Assembly: GCA_945862535.1 (NCBI GenBank)
Contig: CAMAYG010000001.1
Coordinates: forward strand, 18,731 to 82,730
Length of the DNA stretch: 64,000 bases
Direction: 5' to 3'
Source of the DNA: Rickettsia typhi
Lineage (GTDB): Bacteria > Pseudomonadota > Alphaproteobacteria > Rickettsiales > UBA1997
Shown here: in pieces, positions 18,061 through 62,189 of the stretch
How positions within the stretch are numbered: the stretch's first letter is position 1
Layout of the letters: each line of letters starts with the position of its first letter
The notes under the pieces: generated by a model
Database searches by the model: none
What the model saw: the letters and a program-made list of their open reading frames with translations, nothing else
What the model was told of the DNA's origin: nothing
Program-made: the position numbers and the translations under genes

Positions 18061-20133
18061 ATGACCAATTCAAAAGAACCGATATCGAACATTGATAACC
18101 TTAAAGAAACTGTCAAAGACTTAGTCTTAGATGAGGTAGAGATTAAAACAAAGAAAAATAGCCAAACAGATTACCAGCCAGAAGAGGTTAAAGAGAAAAA
18201 AGAGGTGACACCAAGACAGCAAAGAACCCTAACATTGCAGAAAAAATCTAGCCTAGAAAATGCAAAAGAAGAAGTTAAAAATTTAAAAAATCATCGCACC
18301 GGAGGTGTTTTTGATCTTGTATTCAACTCAGCAGATCGTCAGAAATTCAATGCCGAAGAACATAATCATAGCTCGGAACTAGATTCAGATGATTTAAATA
18401 AATATAGCGAAGAAAATATTCACGAATTACAAAAAAATGAAAGAGCTAAACAAGTCTCTTTTGAAAAAATATCTTTTGTTAATAAGGCTTTACCGCCCAA
18501 GTCGCAAACATCAAAGGACTACCAATCTTCCGACACGGAAGATTATCCCCCTTTGCAATACCCTAAATACAGCAACAACAATCTTTTTAATTCTAATAAT
18601 TACCGCGAAAGAAATGCTTCTTACGAGGATAGAGAAGAGTACAAAAACACAAAACCCGCTTATTATAACAATCAAGCACCAGCAAGTCAAAACACTTACA
18701 ACAATAATGGTTTTGACAATTACCAAAATAACTCAATCGATAAATCTTTTAATCATCAAGGAGCAAATCAGATGTCTGGTCGTCAATTTATTGACGATGA
18801 GAACGAGGAGTTTATTGATAATTTAACGGCAAATAAAGCCAATTCCCCTAATGCAAAAACCCTAGAGCTAAAAGAACTAAAAATTCAAAAAGTTGAAGGA
18901 CTTATCGAAATTGCCTCAAAAGAATATGGCATTGAAAACATTGGTGATTTAGGTCGTCAAGATATAATATATTACATTCTTAAGAATTTCTCCGAGCAGA
19001 ATCCTCAAAATGTGATTATTGGTGAGGGTGTATTAGAGATACTTCCAGACGGTTTTGGGTTTTTAAGAGCTCCAGAAACCAACTATTTTGCTGGCTCAGA
19101 CGATATATATGTTTCGCCGAGTCAAATTAAAAGATTCGCTTTAAAAACTGGCGACACTGTTCAAGGGCAAATTCGAGCACCAAAAAAAGGAGAAAAATAT
19201 TTTGCCTTACTACGAGTTAATCAAGTTAACTTCGATAAACCCGAAAAAATAAAGTATAGGGCATTATTTGACGATCTTACCCCAATCCACCCAAATAAAA
19301 AACTAATTCTGGAAACTCAAAATATTCAAAACAGAAGTGCTGGTAATGACACAAGAATTATCGACATGATCTCTCCTCTTGGCAAAGGGCAAAGAGCATT
19401 GATTGTCGCTCCTCCAAAAACCGGAAAAACTTCCTTAATGCAAAATATTGCAAAAGTAGTCTTGGAAGAAAATCCCGAGGTTTATTTGATAGTCTTATTA
19501 ATAGATGAAAGACCAGAGGAAGTAACTGATATGAAAAGAACTGTAAAGGCAGAGGTTGTTAGTTCTACATTCGATGAGCCAGCTAGCAGACATGTTCAAT
19601 TAGCGGAAATGGTTATTGAAAAAGCTTGCAGATTAGTTGAGGCAAAAAAAGATGTTGTGATTCTGCTAGATTCTATAACAAGACTTGCTAGAGCCTATAA
19701 CACTGTAATTCCTTCTTCTGGTAAAGTTTTAACTGGCGGTGTCGATTCTAATGCCCTACAAAGACCAAAAAGATTCTTTGGTGCAGCTAGGAATATCGAG
19801 GAGGGCGGATCCTTAACAATAATTGCCACTGCATTAATTGACACTGGTTCAAAAATGGACGAGGTTATTTTTGAAGAGTTTAAAGGAACCGGCAATTCGG
19901 AAATTGTTCTTGATCGCAAAATATCAGATAAGAGAATTTATCCTGCTATCGACATTACAAAATCTGGAACTAGAAAAGAAGAATTGCTAATTGAAAGGGC
20001 AGAATTAGCAAAAATTTGGATGCTAAGAAGGATTGTCAATCAAATGAATCCTGTAGAGGCGATGGAATTTTTGTTAGCAAAAATCGAAGGAAGCAAAACA
20101 AATGAAGACTTCTTTAGATCGATGAATTCTTAA
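18061..20133 (+). CDS. rho: Transcription termination factor Rho with ~267-aa N-terminal low-complexity extension
   Basis: 690 aa. From about aa 268 it is colinear with E. coli Rho: L.ELK......L.......GIEN......[41 protein letters not shown], Walker [41 protein letters not shown]. The upstream 267 codons are stop-free in an AT-rich context. Confidence 0.95.
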
Positions 20134-21437: not shown

Positions 21438-24400
21438 ATGTCACCACTAAAACATTTCTCAATATTTCTCTTAAAAAGTTTTTCACAATTTCTACAAAGG
21501 CAATCATTAGTCCTCTTTTTACCTTTCTCGCTGTTGGTTGGAGTGTGTTTTTACTATTTTTGTAGCAAATGTTCTGCTGACCATCAGGGCAAAACACTAG
21601 AAATCTTATTATTTTCATCGCTTCTTTTAGCTGTTTTAGCTTTGTCGATATTAATTTTAAACAACAAGAAGGATTGTTACATAAATAACAATTTAGCGAT
21701 TATTAACTATTTAAAGCTCCATCTGTTGCTTTTTATATTTTTTATTGTTCTGTCTTTCCTCTACACATTGATTTTTAATCGCTACTTAGTTAAAAGAAAT
21801 ATTGTTGTTAACCAATATTTATACGGAAATATAATAGCTAAGGTTGTCGATATTAATCAATCTAAAGTCTTCGGCAACAAAAAAGAAAGTATATTTATTC
21901 TTACAGTTGATGGAGTGACTTTTTACCGCGAGCTAGATGGCTATTCGAACAATAATTTAAAGCTAAGTAGTGTCAAAAATCATAGACCAAATCCAAAAAT
22001 AAAGAGAAACAGCAATAAATTAGAAGCATCAAAAGCTTATTATAATCAGAAATTAGGCAACGAAATAAAAAAATGCACAGAGCAATATTTAAAATTTTCC
22101 AACGAGTTTCGGCTTTGCAAAAATAAAGCTCAAGAAAAAGTAGAAATAAACATAAAAATTAGCGAATTAAACAAGCAAATAATTGACTCAGAGCTAGAAA
22201 TTACAAAATTAGATCTTTCTTCCATTGATAGCAAAAACATAACCAGCACAACTCTCTCAAACAAGAAAAATCGACTGATACTCGATGTTAAAGAAAGGCA
22301 AGATAAAATCTTTAAACTACAATGGAATGTAAAAATACCAGCAAAATATCAAAAAATTATTAATCGTTGCGAAGAAAAAGAAGAAATTGATATAAATTGT
22401 GAAGATGATGCTTTTAACAGGTATTTACTAGAAAAACAACAAATCAAAACCAAGGGCAAAACCAAGGGCAAAACCAAAGGTAAATCAACTAATGAGCAAA
22501 GTAAAGAATCTGAAGATAACTTGCAAAACGAAGATGTTGATTTAAATAAAAATAACACAGAAGGCCGAAAATCAAACGAAATTAATGAAGAATGCTTGCC
22601 GGTAATAGAAAATTCTAATTTAGCAGAGAGAAATAATGATGCCGAAGAGGCTAATGAACCAGATCATAGCAAAACAAGCAACGAAGAGGTAGAAAATATT
22701 ATTAGTGACATTATTAATCGCTACCAAAAAGATAAAACCAATGCTATTTTCGCTAAAAATATCGCTAGATGTTTAAAATATCAACTCTCAACAGAGGTTA
22801 GAGAGTGCCATAAAAATATTGTAATAAATTTTAAAAATTGGCAAAATAGTAAAGACAAGAAAATTAAAGAAGCATTAGCTCAAAATAAAATAAAAAAAGA
22901 GCTAAAAATAAAAGAGAAAAACAAGATTTCGATGTTTAAAATGATGAATTATCACGAAATTGGCAATAATCTAGACTTGTGGCAAGATTACGATAGAAAA
23001 TTTGCTACTAACGAGCGTGACTACTTTAAGTTAAATTTTAACAACAATCTCTCTGTTAACGGTCCAAAGAAAATCAAATTAGCTTACAAAATCAACAGAT
23101 CAAACGAAGCAATGCCAAAAATTGGCGACATAATAACGGCAAAGGTTGAAATTAGCCCCGTTTCGGGTAAGAGATTTTTTGGCGACTTTAATTTTCGCCT
23201 TGATTCAATAGTAAAAGGAATTGATGCTAAGGGTAAGATTATTAGCAATATTTACATTAACAACAACATAATAAGCGATAAAAATAATTTATTTTATCAA
23301 ATAGTTGACGATTCTTTTAATTCTAAATTATCACAATTCGATTTATTTATAAAAAATTTACGACAAAGAATTTTAGCAGAAATAAACGATGTCGCCAATA
23401 AACACCAAAACATTTCAGGTTTAACAAATAACGAAGAGTTGGTAAATATGGTTGGAGCATTTCTAATTGGCATGCAAAACCTTATTAATCAAGACACTAT
23501 GGTTAAAATTCAAAAATCTGGACTTGCTCATCTTGTTTCTATTTCTGGCCTACATTTAACCTTAGCCGGCCTAATATTTTTCTATATCGCGCTAACTTTT
23601 TGTAGCTTTAGTCAAAAATTAATGCTTAATGTCAATATTCGTAAAATAGCAGCATTTTTTGCGATATTTTCGGCATTCTTCTATTTACAATTAGCTGGTA
23701 GTCCTTTGCCAGCGGTTCGTGCCTTTTTAACTAGTGGATTACTAATGCTTGCGATCATATTAGATCGCGAAGTTGTTGCAATTAGAATCGTTGCCTTAGC
23801 AATGGTTTTGTTAACAATATATAATCCAGCCAATATATTTAGTGTAAGCTTTCAGCTTTCTTTTATTGCCATTGCCTCGATAATCTCTTTTAATAATTTG
23901 TTTTTTAACTTTATTGAAAATAATAAATTTTACAATAATTTTAAGTTTACCGAATCTAATTTTGTTAAGATAATTATAAAAATCTTAAAAGCTTTTATTG
24001 CTATAGCAATCTCTTCTGTTGTTGCAACCTTATCAACAGCCCCGTTCACAATTTACCATTTTGGAGTTATTAATCCGTTAGGAATTATATCAAATTTCCT
24101 TGCAATTCCATTGGTTAGCTTTGTTACAATGCCGTTAATATTCATTTCGTTAATTTTTATAATTCTGAAGTTGGTAATATTGGAGACCGTTAACCTTAGC
24201 TTTATTATAGCTACTATCAATTTTTTGTTAAAATATTTATTATATTGGTCATTTATATCTATTGACTGGCTAATGTTTATCGTAAATAAAGTGAGCAATA
24301 TGCCATTTAACACAATAAAATTTTACCACATTAATCATTATATTTGGCTACTTTCAATTATTTTTTTGTATTTTGCAATTGCCATAACGGGAAGAGTTAG

Positions 24401-25022
24401 GGGGTTTTTTCTATTAGCTTTCTGCCTTTTGATGTCATTAATTTTTTATAATCGCCTAGATTCATTTGTGGCATTTAGCCATAATAGGCAGTTTTTTGCT
24501 TATTACTTGTTAAAAAATCAATCAATACTCAATAATGAGAAGTATTTAATTTTTTCCGATTTGCCAAAATCACAAAAAATGCAAGATTTATGGCTGAAAG
24601 ATTTTAGCTTAGCAGATAGCGATAATTTTAACATTATTAATTTAGGGTTAAAAAGTGGAGGTTACAGAATTAGCAACGATTTAAACAATGGGTTGTTAAG
24701 CAGTTCTGTAGTTAATTTGAAGTTAATTGAATGTTACCAAACTTATTGTGTTTTAAAAATGAAAAATAGCGAAAGTAGATTTATTTTGCCTTATTTTAAC
24801 ACAAAGCCCTTAGAAAATCATATAATGGTAATAATAAAACGAAGTAATGAAAAAGAGATATGCAAAACTCTCAATAAAGATAAATTAATCACAACGGTAG
24901 TTAATTTAACAGGAAAATATGCCATGCCAAGATGTGTAGGCGATATTAAACAAATTAGAAAAATTGTCGATAATAAAGATTTTAACGATCGAGAGTTTTA
25001 TTATACGACTGGTAGCGATTAA
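21438..25022 (+). CDS. comEC: ComEC/Rec2-family DNA internalization channel with a ~380-aa insertion in the N-terminal OB-fold (DUF4131) region; no C-terminal metallo-beta-lactamase motif
   Basis: 1194 aa. N-terminal TM helices, then OB-like strands (IIAKVVDINQSK..SIFILTVDG and, about 400 aa later, PKIGDIITAKVEISPVSGKRFFGDFNF). Competence-domain motif KSGLAHLVSISGLHLTLAG is followed by many TM helices. I saw no HxHxDH in the C-terminal ~250 aa. Confidence 0.85.
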   Translation: MSPLKHFSIFLLKSFSQFLQRQSLVLFLPFSLLVGVCFYYFCSKCSADHQGKTLEILLFSSLLLAVLALSILILNNKKDCYINNNLAIINYLKLHLLLFIFFIVLSFLYTLIFNRYLVKRNIVVNQYLYGNIIAKVVDINQSKVFGNKKESIFILTVDGVTFYRELDGYSNNNLKLSSVKNHRPNPKIKRNSNKLEASKAYYNQKLGNEIKKCTEQYLKFSNEFRLCKNKAQEKVEINIKISELNKQIIDSELEITKLDLSSIDSKNITSTTLSNKKNRLILDVKERQDKIFKLQWNVKIPAKYQKIINRCEEKEEIDINCEDDAFNRYLLEKQQIKTKGKTKGKTKGKSTNEQSKESEDNLQNEDVDLNKNNTEGRKSNEINEECLPVIENSNLAERNNDAEEANEPDHSKTSNEEVENIISDIINRYQKDKTNAIFAKNIARCLKYQLSTEVRECHKNIVINFKNWQNSKDKKIKEALAQNKIKKELKIKEKNKISMFKMMNYHEIGNNLDLWQDYDRKFATNERDYFKLNFNNNLSVNGPKKIKLAYKINRSNEAMPKIGDIITAKVEISPVSGKRFFGDFNFRLDSIVKGIDAKGKIISNIYINNNIISDKNNLFYQIVDDSFNSKLSQFDLFIKNLRQRILAEINDVANKHQNISGLTNNEELVNMVGAFLIGMQNLINQDTMVKIQKSGLAHLVSISGLHLTLAGLIFFYIALTFCSFSQKLMLNVNIRKIAAFFAIFSAFFYLQLAGSPLPAVRAFLTSGLLMLAIILDREVVAIRIVALAMVLLTIYNPANIFSVSFQLSFIAIASIISFNNLFFNFIENNKFYNNFKFTESNFVKIIIKILKAFIAIAISSVVATLSTAPFTIYHFGVINPLGIISNFLAIPLVSFVTMPLIFISLIFIILKLVILETVNLSFIIATINFLLKYLLYWSFISIDWLMFIVNKVSNMPFNTIKFYHINHYIWLLSIIFLYFAIAITGRVRGFFLLAFCLLMSLIFYNRLDSFVAFSHNRQFFAYYLLKNQSILNNEKYLIFSDLPKSQKMQDLWLKDFSLADSDNFNIINLGLKSGGYRISNDLNNGLLSSSVVNLKLIECYQTYCVLKMKNSESRFILPYFNTKPLENHIMVIIKRSNEKEICKTLNKDKLITTVVNLTGKYAMPRCVGDIKQIRKIVDNKDFNDREFYYTTGSD
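22446..22481. repeat. In-frame 12-bp x3 tandem repeat inside the comEC insertion
   Basis: aaaaccaagggc / aaaaccaagggc / aaaaccaaaggt at 22446, 22458 and 22470. It encodes KTKG KTKG KTKG. Confidence 0.85.
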
Positions 25023-31364: not shown

Positions 31365-31733
31365 ATGGCTAGAGTTACTGTTGAAGATTGTGTAACAATC
31401 GTTAAAAATCGTTTTGATCTTTGTTTAATTGCAAGCAATAGGGCAAAAAGCATCCTATCTGGCAGCCAAACATCATTCGAGGCAAAAGAAAAGCCAGCAG
31501 TGATAGCATTAAGAGAAATTGCAGAAAATCTTGTAGATGTAAATTATATTCGTAAAAATATTATTATGTCGATAAAAAACCGTGGCATAATTCAGTTTTC
31601 AGAAATCAACGAAAAAGAAGAGTTAGAAAACGAACCAAACATAAGCGAAAGCTTTATGTCTCTCGAGAAAGACAAGCAAGTGTTTTTTTCTTCAGAAAAT
31701 TCCGATAATAGCACTCTTAGCGAAGAAGAATAA
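31365..31733 (+). CDS. rpoZ: DNA-directed RNA polymerase subunit omega
   Basis: 122 aa. MARVTVEDCV....NRFDL...A..RA is the canonical RpoZ N-terminus. Confidence 0.9.
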   Translation: MARVTVEDCVTIVKNRFDLCLIASNRAKSILSGSQTSFEAKEKPAVIALREIAENLVDVNYIRKNIIMSIKNRGIIQFSEINEKEELENEPNISESFMSLEKDKQVFFSSENSDNSTLSEEE

Positions 31734-34878: not shown

Positions 34879-35904
34879 ATGTCAAAAATTACTTTACCAA
34901 GTTTTACTATTAAGCAGCTACTGGAAGCAGGTGTTCATTTTGGTCACAAGACTATGCGCCGTAATCCAAAAATGTCTCGCTACATATATACGAACAACAA
35001 CAGCATAAGCATTATCGACCTTACAAAAACCGCTAATCTATTATACAGATCTATGATGGTGGTTAGGGATATAGCTAAAAATAACGGAAGAATACTATTT
35101 GTCGCCACCAAAAAACAAGGTGCAGACATAGTTGCGGAATCAGCAAAAAGATGCGGACAATATTATGTAAATTATCGCTGGCTAGGAGGTATGTTAACAA
35201 ATTGGAAAACGGTTTCTCAATCTATAAAAACACTAAAAATCTTAGAAGATCAACTATCTAACGACGAAGCCGGTCTTAATAAAAAAGAAAAGCTTCTTAT
35301 CGAAAGAGAGAAAGGTAAGTTAGAGTCTGTTCTTGGAGGAATAAAAAACATGGGAGGATACCCAGATCTCATATTCGTCATCGATACTCAGAAAGAAGCT
35401 CTTGCAATTGCCGAAGCTAGAAAGCTTAACATACCAATTATGGCTATCGTAGATACAAATTCAGATCCAGAGGGAATAACATTTCCAATACCTGGAAACG
35501 ACGATTCAATTAAATCAATTGCATTATATTGCAGACTTCTATCCGATGCAGCAATTAGTGGAACAAAAGATAGTATCTTAGCTTCTGGTCTAGATATAAA
35601 AAACTTTGAAAGCGATGAAGATGAAATAGATATCGTAAAAGCAAAAGACTCTCTAAAAGAAAAAAACGACAAAGAGAAAGCTGAAAAAACAAGCAAAAAG
35701 TTCGACAAAAACCCTCGAGGCAACAAAAACTCAAAAGGCAACAATTTCAACGATAAAGCCGATAAAAAAGAAGAAGACTCTGCAACCAGAAGACCTTCTA
35801 GCAATCAAAAACCAAGTACAAATACACAAAATAAAAAAAGAGCAAAAGTTGAATCAAAGCCAATAGAAAAAAAGATTGACGAAGCTGGGAAAGTTAGCGA
35901 ATAA
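34879..35904 (+). CDS. rpsB: 30S ribosomal protein S2 with ~95-aa K/E/N-rich C-terminal tail
   Basis: 341 aa. Motifs LLEAGVHFGH....NPKM..YI, WLGGMLTNW and IP..AIVDTN.DP. The conserved core ends near aa 240, and the remainder is a low-complexity tail. Confidence 0.96.
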   Translation: MSKITLPSFTIKQLLEAGVHFGHKTMRRNPKMSRYIYTNNNSISIIDLTKTANLLYRSMMVVRDIAKNNGRILFVATKKQGADIVAESAKRCGQYYVNYRWLGGMLTNWKTVSQSIKTLKILEDQLSNDEAGLNKKEKLLIEREKGKLESVLGGIKNMGGYPDLIFVIDTQKEALAIAEARKLNIPIMAIVDTNSDPEGITFPIPGNDDSIKSIALYCRLLSDAAISGTKDSILASGLDIKNFESDEDEIDIVKAKDSLKEKNDKEKAEKTSKKFDKNPRGNKNSKGNNFNDKADKKEEDSATRRPSSNQKPSTNTQNKKRAKVESKPIEKKIDEAGKVSE

Positions 35905-41878: not shown

Positions 41879-42580
41879 ATGAAAAAAAAACTTTTAGCAA
41901 TTTTTCTTGTGTCATTTTTAAGTGTAGAATGTTATTACAATCTGCCTTTTGCCAATACTTTAACAACAAAACCCATAACAACACCTAAGAACAATGTTCA
42001 AAATGAAATTAATACCATAAACTCAATACATGGAAGCGGCTCTTCTTATGAGTTATTTGGCATAACGCAATTAATGACCGCCGCTCAATATAACGATCTT
42101 GAAACTATAAAATTTATACTAAAAACAAACATTTCTTCAATTGATCAGAGAAATTTAGGGGGTTCAACGGCACTGCACATTGCTTGTCGGCAACAAAATT
42201 ATGATTCAGTCCTGCTTTTACTGCAAAATAATGCAAATGTTAATATTGTAGATAGCGAAGGATGGACTCCTTTGATGAGAGCTGCAAACAGCGGAAATTT
42301 AAAGATAATTTCTCTTCTTTTGCTTAAGGGTGCATATACCTATATTCTAAACAAAGACAATGAAACAGTGATAATTCAGGCAGTGAGAGCAAATTGTGAT
42401 AAATGTATCAAGCTAATTACCAAGAGTGACGATAATTTATTATTATTAAAAAATATTAAGAAATTAGAATTAAAGTTAATTCAGGATATTGCTTTTCGAT
42501 ATCGTAATAAGAAATTACAATCCGCAATAGATATTATTATAAAAAATAAGCAAATAATTACTAACGAAACAATAAATTAA
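41879..42580 (+). CDS. Ankyrin-repeat protein with N-terminal signal peptide
   Basis: 233 aa. MKKKLLAIFLVSFLSVE.. is a signal-like N-terminus. There are at least 3 ANK units (G.TALHIACRQQNYDSVLLLLQNNANVN..D.EGWTPLMRAANSGNLKIISLLLLKGA). Confidence 0.85.
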   Translation: MKKKLLAIFLVSFLSVECYYNLPFANTLTTKPITTPKNNVQNEINTINSIHGSGSSYELFGITQLMTAAQYNDLETIKFILKTNISSIDQRNLGGSTALHIACRQQNYDSVLLLLQNNANVNIVDSEGWTPLMRAANSGNLKIISLLLLKGAYTYILNKDNETVIIQAVRANCDKCIKLITKSDDNLLLLKNIKKLELKLIQDIAFRYRNKKLQSAIDIIIKNKQIITNETIN

Positions 42581-47152: not shown

Positions 47153-47884
47153 TTAATGGGTTGCGACTAGGTACCAAGTATTGTCAATAGATTTTTTAGC
47201 AATATCATATGAAAAAGTCCATTTATCTAATACTTGCTCTGCTTTATCGGCTGAGCCTTTGATAATCTCGTTATTAAGATTAGTTATAAAGTTAATCTGC
47301 TTACTTGTAAATTGCAACGAAACTCTAATCTCGTTACCAGTTTGATTAACCGAAACTATCTCAACTCTATCTATTTCAATAATCTTACTAACAAGTATTT
47401 TGTTTTGATTAATTCTTTCTTGTTTTGCATATCTTAGATTTGTAAAAACAGATTCTGAGCATAGATGCTTTACATCGTCCATATCGCTGTCAGAAAAACT
47501 CTTTATAATCATTTGAAATGTTGCCTTAGAGGCAGATAAGAAAAAGCTTAAATCTATATTCAACTCTTCGAATATATTGATTATTTGTCTTTTTTGAATA
47601 TATGGTAATTTGGCAATAGATTCGTGAGAAAAGCTTTGATCTTTCTCTGTAGAGCTTTGACCAACTAGCTTAACATCTTGGGGAGTTTCTGTGTTTAGAT
47701 CTTTATTGTCCTGAGCATTATTGTCGTGAGCATTGCTAGAGGCTGAATTTGGATTTAATTTTTGATTTTTGATTTTAGCTTTAATATTTTCTTTTTCTTT
47801 TTCATCGATTTTACCAAATTCGTTATTTAGTTTGTAGAAAATAATTGCTGATAAAATTGCAAGTAAAACAATATCGATAATCAT
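47153..47884 (-). CDS. Tim44-like domain protein (membrane-anchored)
   Basis: 243 aa. N-terminal TM helix, charged linker, and a C-terminal ~140-aa Tim44-like pattern (F...A...F..I...F...D...........F........R................I.......W.F........W.L). This family is typical of alphaproteobacteria. Confidence 0.75.
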   Translation of the reverse strand: MIIDIVLLAILSAIIFYKLNNEFGKIDEKEKENIKAKIKNQKLNPNSASSNAHDNNAQDNKDLNTETPQDVKLVGQSSTEKDQSFSHESIAKLPYIQKRQIINIFEELNIDLSFFLSASKATFQMIIKSFSDSDMDDVKHLCSESVFTNLRYAKQERINQNKILVSKIIEIDRVEIVSVNQTGNEIRVSLQFTSKQINFITNLNNEIIKGSADKAEQVLDKWTFSYDIAKKSIDNTWYLVATH

Positions 47885-52911: not shown

Positions 52912-53856
52912 ATGGTAATATCCAATCAGCAATTAATTGAAATTCAAGAGTTGCAACAGCAAAAAAAGACCACAATCAGACCTATATCAGAAAGCCTAGA
53001 AGAGGTTCTTTATAAACCATTCGAAGTTCTAGATCATGGTTTTATCCGAGTTGTTGATTACATGGGAAATGACGATGCAATAGTTCAGGCCGCAAGAGTT
53101 TCTTATGGGAGCGGGACAAAAAAAACCAGTGCTGATAAGGCCTTAATTAATTACTTAATCGCCCATAGGCACACCACTCCATTTGAGATGTGCGAAATTA
53201 AGTTTCATATTAAGTTGCCAATCTTTGTTGCTCGACAATGGATAAGGCATCGCACCGCCTCAATTAATGAATATTCTGCCAGATATTCTATCTTAGAAGA
53301 CGAATTCTATCTACCAAATGCTAGCTTTCTTGCTGCTCAATCCAAAATTAACCACCAAGGAAGGAATGAAGAAAAGATTTTAAATAAAGAAGAGCAGCAA
53401 GAGGTGTTGCAAATACTCAAAAATGATTCTCAAAACTCTTATCAAAATTATCTAAAAATGATCAATCAGGATCAAGAAGGTAATATTACAGATTCTTCAA
53501 AGGAGGGCTTGGCACGAGAATTAGCAAGAATAAACCTACCCTTAAGTTGCTACACTCAATGGTATTGGAAAATAGATCTTCACAACCTTCTTCATTTCTT
53601 GCATTTACGATCTGATAAACATTCTCAATATGAAATTCGCGTTTATGCAGAGGTGATGCTAGATTTAGTTAAGAAGTGGGTTCCTGCTACATATGAAGCA
53701 TTTATCAAGAATCGCAAAAATTCTAAAGAATTTTCAGCTCCAGCAATAGAAGTTGTAAAAAAATTAATCAATAAACAGCCCGTGGATCAAGAAAATTCAG
53801 GGTTGAGCAAAAGGGAGTGGGACGAATTAATGCTAATTCTTGAATTATCCAATTAA
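52912..53856 (+). CDS. thyX: FAD-dependent thymidylate synthase ThyX
   Basis: 314 aa. ThyX signature [19 protein letters not shown] (RHRxxS), plus [19 protein letters not shown] and RSD.H.Q.EIR. Confidence 0.92.
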
Positions 53857-57304: not shown

Positions 57305-59110
57305 ATGTTCATAAAAAAACTTTCTAAATTGTTAAAAAATAACAAGAATCAACACTTCAAAAATAAATTCAAAAAGGTAATTTTAGCTCTAAAAGTTTTA
57401 CTAGTTACTAATTTGGTGTTAATAGTTGTATCTTCATGCTCCACGGCACTTAAAAAAGACAATAAAACTAAAAAAAAGAACATATTCGATTACCAGAATT
57501 TCGACAATGAGGCGAATCTTACACAGAACGATGTCGAGAAGGTTTTTAATAAAAATATTGCCAAAAATAACAAACATTTACCAAAGACAGATCAAAAAAC
57601 ACCCGAGGTTCAGGCGGTAAATATTCCAAAATTTTCAAGAATGATAGTGTCTCCACCGCCTCCAAAAATAGGCGGAGACAAAATGATATCTTTTTCAACA
57701 ACAGATCAGGTGCCACTTAAGGATGCACTATTAGAGCTCGGGAGAGTTGCTAATATCGATATTGATATCGACAAAAATATCGATGCAAGAATAATCTTAA
57801 ATGCAAAAAATAGACCGTTAACAGAGGTTTTAGACCGAGTAGCAAGCTTAGCAAATATAATATATTCCTACAAAAATGGAGTGTTGTATTTTGAACAAGA
57901 CAAACACTTTAATAAAAATTACTTTGTTGATTTTTTATCAAATAGTAATATTTGGGAGAATGTGGAAGAGAATATTAAAGAAATTATAAGTAATAGTGCT
58001 ACAGAAAAGGTTGCTGAAGATAAAAATCAGAACACTAGTAACGGTAGTGTTAAAATCAATAAAAATGCCGGGCTAATTAGTGTTTTTGCAAATAGCCAAC
58101 AGCACCAAAATATAAAAAAATACCTAGAAGATGTCTTAGCAGGCTCTTCTTCTCAGGTTTTAATTGAAGCTAAAGTTGTCGAAGTTAATCTGGGTAAAGA
58201 CTTTCAAACAGGAGTAAATTGGAACTATCTTGGCAATAAAGTTGGCACATTGTTAACGGAACTACCAGGACGATTAATAAATGAAACAGTAGCGGGGGTA
58301 GCGGCGGTCGGAGGAGGGATCTCAGATATCGCAAAATTACCACCATTAACGCCTATAAATTCTATTTTCTCAAACTACTATTACAATTCGGCACCACGAC
58401 CTGCACTAACCCTACAGATGACACTAGATCAGCAAAATATAGATTTCACAATGAGATTTTTGGAGCAATTTGGAACTATGCGAGCTTTGTCAAGCCCTAG
58501 GATAGGAGCCATGAACAACCAACAATCAACTTTAGATTTTTCAGAAAAATATATCTATTTTACCGTTGAAGCTAGTCAATCAACAACAATCGCCTCTTCT
58601 GCCAACACAGGACCATCTCAAAACAGCACTGTTTTAACTTATAAAAAAGAAGAAGAGTCGATTGGTACAAAACTTAAAATTACTCCATCTATCAATATAG
58701 AGGAGAAGGAAATATCACTAATAATTGAACCAACTCTCTCAACAAAAGTAGGCGACGTTTTAGAGCCATCAATCAACCCCAGCACTGGTCTATCTCTAAA
58801 CAATAAAATACCTATTATCAAAACTAGAACGCTTAACACTACAGCAAAAATTAGAAGCGGAGAAGTTTTGGTAATAGGCGGTTTGCTTAACGAATCTTCA
58901 GTAAATAACTATGTTGGGGTTCCATTAATTTCTAGACTACCTTTTATCGGATCTTTATTTAGATACAAGATTAAAAACACTCAAACTATTGAAACTGTTA
59001 TTTTTATTAAGGCAACAATAGTAGATAAATATAACGGTGTATCAAAAACAGACAAATTATTTCATGATAAATTTACTGTTGATAATAAAAAATTCCTAAA
59101 CAACAAATAA
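57305..59110 (+). CDS. Secretin-family outer-membrane channel (GspD/PilQ/MshL-like), probable lipoprotein
   Basis: 601 aa. Basic N-terminus, hydrophobic stretch and lipobox-like VSSC (Cys45). An N-domain (ISFSTTDQVPLKDALLELGR...) is followed by the secretin core: QVLIEAKVVEV......G.NW, MRALSSPRI...NQQ, GEVLVIGGL.......VGVP..SRLP.IG.LFR......T..E.VIFI.ATIV. Confidence 0.85.
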   Translation: MFIKKLSKLLKNNKNQHFKNKFKKVILALKVLLVTNLVLIVVSSCSTALKKDNKTKKKNIFDYQNFDNEANLTQNDVEKVFNKNIAKNNKHLPKTDQKTPEVQAVNIPKFSRMIVSPPPPKIGGDKMISFSTTDQVPLKDALLELGRVANIDIDIDKNIDARIILNAKNRPLTEVLDRVASLANIIYSYKNGVLYFEQDKHFNKNYFVDFLSNSNIWENVEENIKEIISNSATEKVAEDKNQNTSNGSVKINKNAGLISVFANSQQHQNIKKYLEDVLAGSSSQVLIEAKVVEVNLGKDFQTGVNWNYLGNKVGTLLTELPGRLINETVAGVAAVGGGISDIAKLPPLTPINSIFSNYYYNSAPRPALTLQMTLDQQNIDFTMRFLEQFGTMRALSSPRIGAMNNQQSTLDFSEKYIYFTVEASQSTTIASSANTGPSQNSTVLTYKKEEESIGTKLKITPSINIEEKEISLIIEPTLSTKVGDVLEPSINPSTGLSLNNKIPIIKTRTLNTTAKIRSGEVLVIGGLLNESSVNNYVGVPLISRLPFIGSLFRYKIKNTQTIETVIFIKATIVDKYNGVSKTDKLFHDKFTVDNKKFLNNK

Positions 59111-60953: not shown

Positions 60954-62189
60954 ATGGACGATTTTGGCTACCAAAAAACTAGTAAAAAATTAACAGCTAA
61001 AATCAATTATCGCCGATACCTAGTCTTGATTTTATTAATAATTTCTATCGCAGGCTTTTTGGTTATTGCTGGTGAGGCATATTACTTAAGTATTTTTAAA
61101 GATAATAAAAAAGTCATAACAATACTTCCGCCCTCTGGCCCGCTGAAAGTAGCTAACAATCAACAGCACAATGAATTAGAAAATGTTAACACTAGCGCGG
61201 TTTACGAAGAAATTTTTGGAGATCGTAAAGTTGACGAAGAAATAGGCAAAACCGTTGTAATTACTCAACCAGAACCCCCTTCCCCAGCTAAAAACATCCC
61301 GTTAACAGAGGGTTATCTTGCTAAAGAAGATGATTTAGAACAGCAAATAGGTTATACAGAGACGGTTTCAAAAACAACAAATAACAACTTAAAAATAACA
61401 AATATTTCAGCAAAAGAAATAATCGATCCTAAAAAAGACAACAAACCTAATAACAAAGATATAACAAAAAATTCCAGTAAAAACCCTGAAAAAGATAATG
61501 AAAAACATAGTGAAAAACATGATTCAAGAAACTTGGAACCAGCTATTAGTAAGCTTGAGAACAAAGTTAAAGACCAAAGTTTGCTTTTCCACCTAAATCA
61601 ACCACCAAGCAAGTCGCAAATCATAACCCCAATTTTACAACATAATAAAAAAGACGAAAAAGGCGAAAAAGGCGAAAAAAATCAATCAGGGCAAAATGAA
61701 GAAACGGTAAAGTTAAAGCAACAATCAAAGAAAGATGAAGATTTAGAAGAATCGAAGAAGAATTTACTGGTGCCAAAAAACAACAGTGGCGGTATAATTA
61801 TTTTTAACGAGCAAAACAAAGCTAAGAACAAAGAGATACTAATTTTAGACAACAGAAATCAAAAACCAATAAAATCTCAGCAAAATCAAAAAGAAGATCT
61901 TCAAAACAAACAAAACGACAAAAAATCTAAGAGAATGATGGTGCAAATTGCCGCAATGTCTTCTAAATCTAATACCGAGAAGATGTGGAAGCAAATTAGC
62001 AAGAATAATCCAAAATTTTTCAAAGGTCTTTCTTATAAAATTGAAGAAGTAAATTTGGGCTCAAAGGGATTATTTTATCGATTAAAAGTTGGATCTTTCG
62101 CCAATCAAATCGAGGCAGAAAAATTCTGTAACAAATATTTAGCTAGCAGTAACAAAAAGAGCAATTCGGATTGCTTGATGGTAGAGTAA
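60954..62189 (+). CDS. SPOR-domain protein (TM anchor, long K/N/E/Q-rich linker, C-terminal SPOR)
   Basis: 411 aa. TM helix YLVLILLIISIAGFLVIAG. C-terminal SPOR pattern: VQIAAMSS...........K....F......I.........YRLKVG.F.....A..FC. The argS-SPOR gene pair is common in alphaproteobacteria. Confidence 0.8.
   Translation: MDDFGYQKTSKKLTAKINYRRYLVLILLIISIAGFLVIAGEAYYLSIFKDNKKVITILPPSGPLKVANNQQHNELENVNTSAVYEEIFGDRKVDEEIGKTVVITQPEPPSPAKNIPLTEGYLAKEDDLEQQIGYTETVSKTTNNNLKITNISAKEIIDPKKDNKPNNKDITKNSSKNPEKDNEKHSEKHDSRNLEPAISKLENKVKDQSLLFHLNQPPSKSQIITPILQHNKKDEKGEKGEKNQSGQNEETVKLKQQSKKDEDLEESKKNLLVPKNNSGGIIIFNEQNKAKNKEILILDNRNQKPIKSQQNQKEDLQNKQNDKKSKRMMVQIAAMSSKSNTEKMWKQISKNNPKFFKGLSYKIEEVNLGSKGLFYRLKVGSFANQIEAEKFCNKYLASSNKKSNSDCLMVE
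61653..61679. repeat. In-frame 9-bp x3 tandem repeat inside the SPOR-protein linker
   Basis: gacgaaaaa / ggcgaaaaa / ggcgaaaaa at 61653, 61662 and 61671. It encodes DEK GEK GEK. Confidence 0.8.

Follow-up and report, generated by a model that had tools for sequence, protein, structure and literature searches.

The window analysed here is a stretch of 64,000 nucleotides from an assembly labelled Rickettsia typhi (GCA_945862535.1, contig CAMAYG010000001.1, positions 18,731 to 82,730 of the forward strand); all positions below are counted from its first letter. The window is AT-rich (32% GC) and carries housekeeping and biosynthetic genes of a small-genome alphaproteobacterium known from metagenome assemblies alone. 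An open reading frame (ORF) on the forward strand encodes ComEC, which serves universally as the DNA importer of the inner membrane in natural transformation. The binding of DNA by the oligonucleotide/oligosaccharide-binding (OB) fold at the entrance of ComEC was shown only recently. In the window protein, this OB fold is split between the strands b2 and b3 by an insertion of 381 amino acids (aa). An earlier note, made from the sequence alone, had described an ORF of 1194 aa and an OB fold in two pieces around an insertion of about 380 aa; the ORF was borne out as described, and the split was supported by alignment, by an AlphaFold2 model and by an excision test. The features of the gene are listed below, with the predicted local distance difference test (pLDDT) scores of the model.

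21438..25022, forward strand: comEC ORF, 1194 aa plus stop codon.
21501..21794, forward strand: three N-terminal transmembrane (TM) helices, about aa 22-119 (hydropathy 22-44, 51-78, 85-119).
21819..21926, forward strand: first half of the OB fold, b1 at aa 128-142 and b2 at aa 152-163 (AlphaFold2, block-mean pLDDT mostly 61-89).
21927..23069, forward strand: insertion in the b2-b3 loop, aa 164-544, 381 aa (alignment, model, excision).
22014..22454, forward strand: predicted helical module 1, aa 193-339, with C213/C227 and C311/C321 (AlphaFold2, pLDDT 66-86).
22445-22477, forward strand: KTKG tandem repeat (CAAAACCAAGGG x2.8, perfect 12-nt unit), encoding KTKGKTKGKTKG.
22455..22679, forward strand: predicted disordered acidic low-complexity spacer, aa 340-414 (pLDDT 26-32; net charge -7).
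22680..23003, forward strand: predicted helical module 2, aa 415-522, with C445/C457 (AlphaFold2, pLDDT 41-76).
22965..23030, forward strand: b3-proximal motif NNLDLWQDYDRKFATNERDYFK at the C-terminal end of the insert (clade alignment, consensus LNLxxYQEIDRxF).
23070..23240, forward strand: second half of the OB fold, b3 at aa 545-551, b4 at 565-574, helix at 586-592, b5 at 597-601 (AlphaFold2, pLDDT 80-91).
23463..24386, forward strand: Competence (channel) domain, aa 676-983 (PF03772, pLDDT mostly >90).
24438..25019, forward strand: predicted C-terminal alpha/beta domain, aa 1001-1194, in place of the metallo-beta-lactamase (MBL) domain (AlphaFold2, block-mean pLDDT mostly 60-88, two loops lower).

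The OB fold could be traced on both sides of the insertion. In the alignment, canonical alphaproteobacterial ComECs run contiguously over both pieces, with the strands ..VxGxVxxI.. (b1), ..RxxL.. (b2), a short loop, PKKIRL (b3) and GxxVxxxAxLxPP (b4); whereas the window protein and its relatives carry a large block between b2 and b3, with 381 residues in the window protein instead of about 22. The first half aligns with b1 and b2 of the canonical proteins, and the second half aligns to the OB region of the solved ComEC 9vc9. The AlphaFold2 model, which was built from an alignment of 124 sequences (mean pLDDT 74.6, pTM 0.70), also predicted strands on both sides of the insert, as expected for two halves of one OB fold; a model from only three close homologues was unusable (mean pLDDT 31.5). 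In the native protein, only aa 526-601 matched the Pfam family DUF4131 (PF13567), over profile positions 82-159 of 165; the 17.1 bits of this match stay below the cut-off of 31.6. After in-silico deletion of aa 164-537, one continuous match over positions 9-159 was obtained at 33.1 bits, above the gathering score of 31.6, and the first half of the fold accounted for the positions before 82. The DUF4131 domain is therefore present but interrupted in the window ComEC, and the native match stays below the threshold because the insertion splits the OB fold.

The Competence domain (PF03772) scored 156.7 bits in Pfam against a cut-off of 23 (E 9.6e-46), and the NCBIfam model TIGR00360 scored 77.6 bits against 36.5, in agreement with a ComEC. 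The full-length equivalog TIGR00361 (OB fold, channel and MBL domain) reached only 104.7 of the 190.05 bits needed, with profile positions 47-408 of 663 covered. The competence domain had been called intact from the sequence; this is in line with the Pfam match (about 1e-45) and with the nine channel columns that are invariant across 124 ComECs, all of which are kept (9/9: G678, H698, S703, G704, H706, R761, S808, N886 and P891). AlphaFold2 placed the N-terminal TM helices at 28-47, 51-79 and 84-117. The motifs of the conserved part were located at aa 132-143 (IIAKVVDINQSK), 151-159 (SIFILTVDG), 560-586 (PKIGDIIT...FNF) and 695-707 (GLAHLVSISGLHL); those of the insert lie at 337-348 (KTKGKTKGKTKG) and 415-424 (NEEVENIISD).

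The insert is placed in the periplasm, because three TM helices precede the OB fold as in the solved ComEC, where cryo-electron microscopy (cryo-EM) showed three TM helices and after them, at the mouth of the channel, an OB fold in the periplasm (PMC13539106). The solved three-domain ComECs include that of Neomoorella carbonis (PMC13539106; PDB 9vc9, 9vcb, 9vcf and 9vc6), an OB fold (9IEW) and an MBL domain (9IC4). The clade profile aligns to these chains from b3 of the OB fold through the channel (E 5e-41 to 9vc9), and the periplasmic OB fold at the mouth is shared. However, the solved proteins are 799-837 aa long; whereas the window protein has no MBL domain or HxHxDH motif and carries a large insertion in an OB loop. 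Among the closest known counterparts are also the alphaproteobacterial 'DC' ComECs, such as those of Azospirillum and Sphingomonas (PMC6299819), which have the same three TM helices, OB fold and Competence channel; in place of the MBL domain they end in a domain of about 150-190 aa in which four Cys are conserved. They differ in having about 22 residues between b2 and b3, and native detection of DUF4131 fails in the window protein because of the split. The family, the topology and the MBL-less architecture are already known. No description was found of a clade-wide insertion with conserved Cys hairpins that interrupts the OB fold, and a literature search on ComEC in Rickettsiales also found none.

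A long ORF of this kind could also be an artefact or a pseudogene, arising from a chimeric assembly, a frameshift or a mobile, intein-like element. In favor of such an origin, no ComEC of the homologue lists reaches the length of this protein, and its native DUF4131 match is below threshold. However, the orthologues P0001 (JGI/NCBI) and P0002 (Logan assembly) come from independent assemblies and encode uninterrupted ORFs of 1189 aa with 85% identity, in the same gene order (rho, argJ, comEC, exbD, exbB, tonB, thrS). The ORF is thus not an assembly artefact, which answers the doubt raised in the earlier note, and it has no frameshift. Moreover, homologous inserts of 241-400 aa occur in related lineages, and the whole gene is under purifying selection. 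A foreign origin of the insert was ruled out by its GC content and GC content at third codon positions (GC3), both equal to those of the remaining comEC gene, and an intein or mobile element was ruled out since no additional domain was detected by Pfam or NCBIfam. This explanation is effectively refuted, and its probability is regarded as negligible.

Within the insert, two helical modules around a spacer were predicted. Residues 165-545 contain 15.7% K, 13.9% N and 10.5% E, and the K/E/N-rich character, the repeat and the acidic stretch noticed before were found at the expected positions. A linker predicted to be disordered (aa 164-192) leads into module 1, whose AlphaFold2 helices span 193-216, 221-264, 271-298, 302-313 and 321-339. 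In the model, C213/C227 bracket the 216/221 turn between two helices, and C311/C321 bracket the 313/321 turn. The helices of module 2 were predicted at 415-430, 433-447, 452-470, 474-507 and 512-522, with C445/C457 around the 447/452 turn. These long predicted helices coincide with the sequence that had looked heptad-like. The spacer between the modules shows indels against P0001 and P0002 and overlaps the KTKG tandem repeat, which has one copy in these close relatives and three in the window protein; the expansion in the window protein is therefore a recent slippage event. The insert closes with the motif NLDLWQDYDRKF, which leads into b3. In the clade alignment, N511 and R520 are invariant and Q516 and F522 nearly invariant; residue 511 is also the start of many tblastn matches.

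The Cys residues of the insert are located at 213/227, 311/321, 386 and 445/457, and make up 1.8% of it versus 0.98% of the long ORFs of the window. The earlier count of seven Cys, with three close pairs and an unpaired C386 in a proteome poor in Cys, was thus correct. In the three-way alignment with P0001 and P0002, the six paired Cys are invariant; whereas C386 is not conserved. The window group, P0009/P0012 and P0010/P0011 are three lineages that carry three Cys pairs in the same order. These lineages are only about 30-35% identical, and the sequence around the pairs has diverged; the Cys loops are 4-16 residues long, and the motif KKFLKxxxxC is found upstream again and again. The first two Cys units of P0011 are obvious duplicates. 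Other clade members carry two, one or no Cys pairs. The location of the three pairs at predicted helix-turn-helix junctions fits periplasmic disulfide staples of helical hairpins, and this agrees with the earlier suggestion of an extracytoplasmic, disulfide-stabilised module. The N-loop of the Bacillus subtilis ComEC was also described as disulfide-bonded (PMC12455585).

The sister proteins illustrate how far these inserts can differ. P0009 (MCE2687577.1, labelled 'Rickettsiales bacterium') and P0012 are 1081-1084 aa long, and P0010 and P0011 are 847-921 aa. All four share with the window protein the insertion site, the three Cys pairs in order, the b3-adjacent motif and local homology at hairpins 2 and 3. 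However, the conserved part is only about 30-35% identical to that of the window protein, and the insert can for the most part not be aligned. Their Cys loops have 5/16/5 or 5/5/5 residues, versus 13/9/11 in the window protein; their inserts are more cationic (+26 to +32 versus +13) and have no acidic spacer.

Homologues were searched with the conserved part of the protein (aa 546-1194), since a full-length query was dominated by low-complexity words and gave only 8 matches. The nearest relatives are ComECs of 723-1084 aa from metagenome-assembled genomes (MAGs) that bear the label 'Rickettsiales bacterium'; next come ordinary ComECs of Alphaproteobacteria, with about 700 aa. A scan of the GTDB species representatives with the clade alignment retrieved 80 ComEC loci. 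When the loop was counted from the b2 to the b3 anchor column, it had 22 residues (range 16-24) in 49 ordinary alphaproteobacterial ComECs, including those of Azospirillum, Dongia, Magnetospirillum and a 'Rickettsiaceae' MAG; whereas 41 sequences, mostly from freshwater-lake MAGs labelled Rickettsiales, had 80-400. The window insert is near the top of this range, which P0009 and P0012 extend to 397-400 aa. The earlier note had called such an insert unusual. The comparison of lengths among relatives corrects this: the whole clade carries a variable insertion at this site, and inserts longer than that of the window protein exist. In the neighbor-joining tree of 287 channel-domain columns, 37 insert-bearing ComECs formed one clade with no insert-less member, which indicates a single origin of the b2-b3 insertion in the ancestor of an uncultured freshwater clade. 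Of the 41 inserts, 37 carry the motif [QE][DE]x[DE]R beside b3. BLASTP comparison of the window insert with the other inserts revealed only local homology: hairpin 2 matched P0009/P0012 (E 3e-7, in a set of 40 sequences), and hairpin 3 matched together with the b3-proximal motif (E 1e-3).

The insert has no match in the databases of known domains and structures. No Pfam or NCBIfam family was found for aa 164-544 at E<=1. When 1.84 billion representatives were searched exhaustively by phmmer, the insert gave no homologue beyond its own cluster. A Foldseek search of the model against the PDB gave nothing at E<1 and no ComEC among the matches, not even the solved ones that had been met by sequence. 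The check for a known domain proposed before thus returned no curated family, no solved structure and no protein outside the cluster. The best Foldseek shapes, all at E>=1 with low TM-scores, were generic antiparallel coiled-coil hairpins. These matches bear on the idea that the insert is a stalk spanning the periplasm, with helical hairpins that dock on an outer-membrane DNA conduit (secretin or pilus) like the alpha-hairpins of membrane fusion proteins. The predicted helices are up to 44 residues long and arranged as hairpins; the top matches include the receptor-binding domains of colicins E2/E3/E9, HlyD and LipC; and a stand-alone secretin lies in the same window (57305-59110). However, matches of this quality indicate a generic shape at most, and most clade inserts are short (80-200 aa), many of them without Cys hairpins. 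The secretin is also 32 kb away without adjacent pilus genes, and no partner was identified. A stalk is therefore considered quite improbable.

The secretin itself (forward strand, 601 aa) is encoded between nuoF and argS; neither pilus genes nor genes of type II secretion adjoin it. It matched the Pfam Secretin family (E 4e-31); the best NCBIfam models were MshL, GspD and PilQ, all below their cut-offs. This protein is a candidate outer-membrane conduit for DNA uptake, and no other competence genes were found besides it and comEC in the 64-kb window.

Selection on the insert was estimated as the ratio of nonsynonymous to synonymous substitution rates (dN/dS, Nei-Gojobori) between the window comEC and the P0002 locus (L001). 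The ratio was 0.24 for the whole gene and 0.13 for the channel domain. The whole insert gave 0.36, which answers the earlier question whether it is constrained. Within it, aa 165-335 gave 0.43, the spacer (aa 336-414) 0.54, the highest in the gene, and aa 415-545 only 0.17. The insert is thus under purifying selection, which is strongest in the C-terminal third, with a ratio near that of the channel domain; the spacer is the least constrained part.

These values are relevant to another explanation, namely that the insert is tolerated expansion without function, in an AT-rich small genome that gathers K/N/E-rich sequence in its surface loops, b2-b3 among them. The five-fold variation of insert length in the clade, the perfect slippage repeat with different copy numbers in close relatives, the predicted disorder and high dN/dS of the spacer (aa 340-414, 0.54), the lack of any insert homologue outside its own cluster, and the net charge per residue of the window insert, which is at the background level, are all in its favor. 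Polar low-complexity segments are also common in the window, including the extension of Rho and the tail of the ribosomal protein S2. However, dN/dS is below 1 throughout the insert and falls to 0.17 in aa 415-545; three Cys pairs are kept in three diverged lineages; the b3-adjacent motif is conserved in 37 of 41 sequences; and the insert was never lost in 37 lineages. The charge of the inserts also differs from that of other low-complexity sequence. The clade inserts contain 20-31% K/R and have a net charge of +6 to +44 (with one exception), and their mean charge per residue is +0.122, versus +0.025 in 197 other polar low-complexity segments of the same loci. Functionless expansion is the main rival explanation, but it is judged somewhat unlikely. 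The earlier note had left the choice between a new module and tolerated low-complexity expansion; each seems to be true of different parts of the insert.

With moderate confidence, the window protein is read from these comparisons as a ComEC/Rec2 channel that functions in DNA uptake and belongs to the MBL-less type of Alphaproteobacteria, with a lineage-specific appendage in the b2-b3 loop of its periplasmic OB fold. Several points weigh against this. The Mann-Whitney test on the charge difference gave p 2e-14, a value that overstates the evidence since the sequences are related. The window insert has a net charge of +13, or +0.034 per residue, which is the level of the low-complexity background; the polycation argument therefore fits the relatives more than the window protein. 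Of the 53 window ORFs, 15 have polar or charged low-complexity segments that are 40 aa or longer, Rho and S2 among them, so part of the insert may be tolerated expansion. Finally, the insert was covered by only three sequences in the alignment given to AlphaFold2.

The history of such an appendage might be proposed as follows. The ancestor of the clade probably had a short lysine-rich linker with a conserved helix (the YQEIDRxF motif) adjoining b3. The length has since changed to 80-400 aa through low-complexity expansion, replication slippage and duplication of the KKFLKxxxxC-loop-C unit. The window lineage would have arrived at two helical modules stapled by three periplasmic disulfides, with a disordered acidic spacer between them. 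The insert is probably an appendage at the DNA channel's entrance, which grew partly as low-complexity sequence and was partly fixed as a folded structure. The OB fold of ComEC is periplasmic and located at the channel entrance (PMC13539106). It binds DNA via residues of positive charge and increases the concentration of DNA nearby, an effect that any DNA-binding domain in cis can have (PMC12455585). Because the OB fold sits at the channel mouth and binds DNA electrostatically, we infer that the appendage would enlarge the DNA capture surface, or bind a periplasmic partner, at this site. It might act as a polycationic arm in most clade members, and as a folded module of mixed charge on a flexible tether in the window protein. 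A bolder proposal is that the insert is a built-in periplasmic DNA receptor or adaptor, polycationic in most of the clade and developed into disulfide-stapled helical hairpins in the window protein. In these small-genome bacteria it would capture DNA at the channel mouth and hand it over, a role that ComEA normally plays with the help of the MBL domain; or it would be a bridge from ComEC to the outer-membrane secretin. Both would represent an undescribed design of DNA uptake, which seems decidedly unlikely.

Neither an H.H or H.H.D motif anywhere in the window ComEC nor a Lactamase_B family of Pfam at E<=1 was found, which confirms the reported lack of an HxHxDH motif and MBL domain. The lack itself is not unusual, since it is the usual alphaproteobacterial architecture; the DUF4131 and Competence profile is the main one in Alphaproteobacteria (PMC6299819). 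The MBL-less alphaproteobacterial ComECs share this C-terminal domain; C1142 and C1166 do not vary among them, and C1099 and C1104 hardly do. In the MAFFT alignment, the C-terminal domain is co-linear with the MBL domain of other ComECs, and the tail consensus is similar (GAxxl...RpW versus GAxxi...RyW). The hhalign comparison of this domain with ComEC MBL domains was not significant (P 0.04-0.08, probability about 1%). The domain may be a degenerate remnant of the nuclease, which is a lead and not an established relationship.

Since the OB fold of this clade tolerates 80-400 extra residues in one loop and keeps them under selection, the clade reveals which of the loops points away from the channel. 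The insert also suggests that MBL-less ComECs might have an accessory arm for binding DNA or a partner. Furthermore, domain surveys score these proteins as 'Competence only', and the OB fold is under-counted in this group because the insertion breaks the DUF4131 match. If the insert were only tolerated expansion, its value would mainly be to caution annotators and to illustrate how low-complexity sequence grows in small, AT-rich genomes.

Other observations were made at these loci. Smaller lineage-specific insertions relative to the nearest relatives are present in ComEC at aa 76-88, 607-632, 655-668 and about 915-935 (window about 21663-24242), which fall between the helices TM2 and TM3, behind the OB fold and within the channel domain. 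Some of the MAGs with an insert-type ComEC are labelled 'Rickettsia typhi' (L002, L011, L014 and L024) or 'Rhizobium sp.' (L008, L015, L020, L021, L025 and L029). These names do not match the sequences, and the taxon labels of these lake MAGs look unreliable, as their ComECs fall in one clade with those of MAGs labelled 'Rickettsiales bacterium'.

Polar low-complexity expansion is a genome-wide tendency. For example, in the Rho protein (18061-20133, forward strand, 690 aa) the Rho_N domain starts at residue 272, after about 270 residues of low-complexity sequence rich in N/Q/S/E/K; the Rho orthologues beside P0001 and P0002 have 685-686 aa, so this N-terminal extension is conserved. The ribosomal protein S2 (34879-35904, 341 aa) has a K/E/D/N-rich tail of 110 aa. 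Further ORFs with low-complexity segments are rpoZ (31365-31733), thyX (52912-53856) and an SPOR/FtsN-like gene (60954-62189). The window genes also include enolase, purD, aroA, metW, argJ and aconitase. Among the housekeeping genes are a Tim44-like domain protein (47153-47884, reverse strand, 243 aa) and an ankyrin-repeat protein (41879-42580, forward strand, 233 aa) of a type common in host-associated bacteria.

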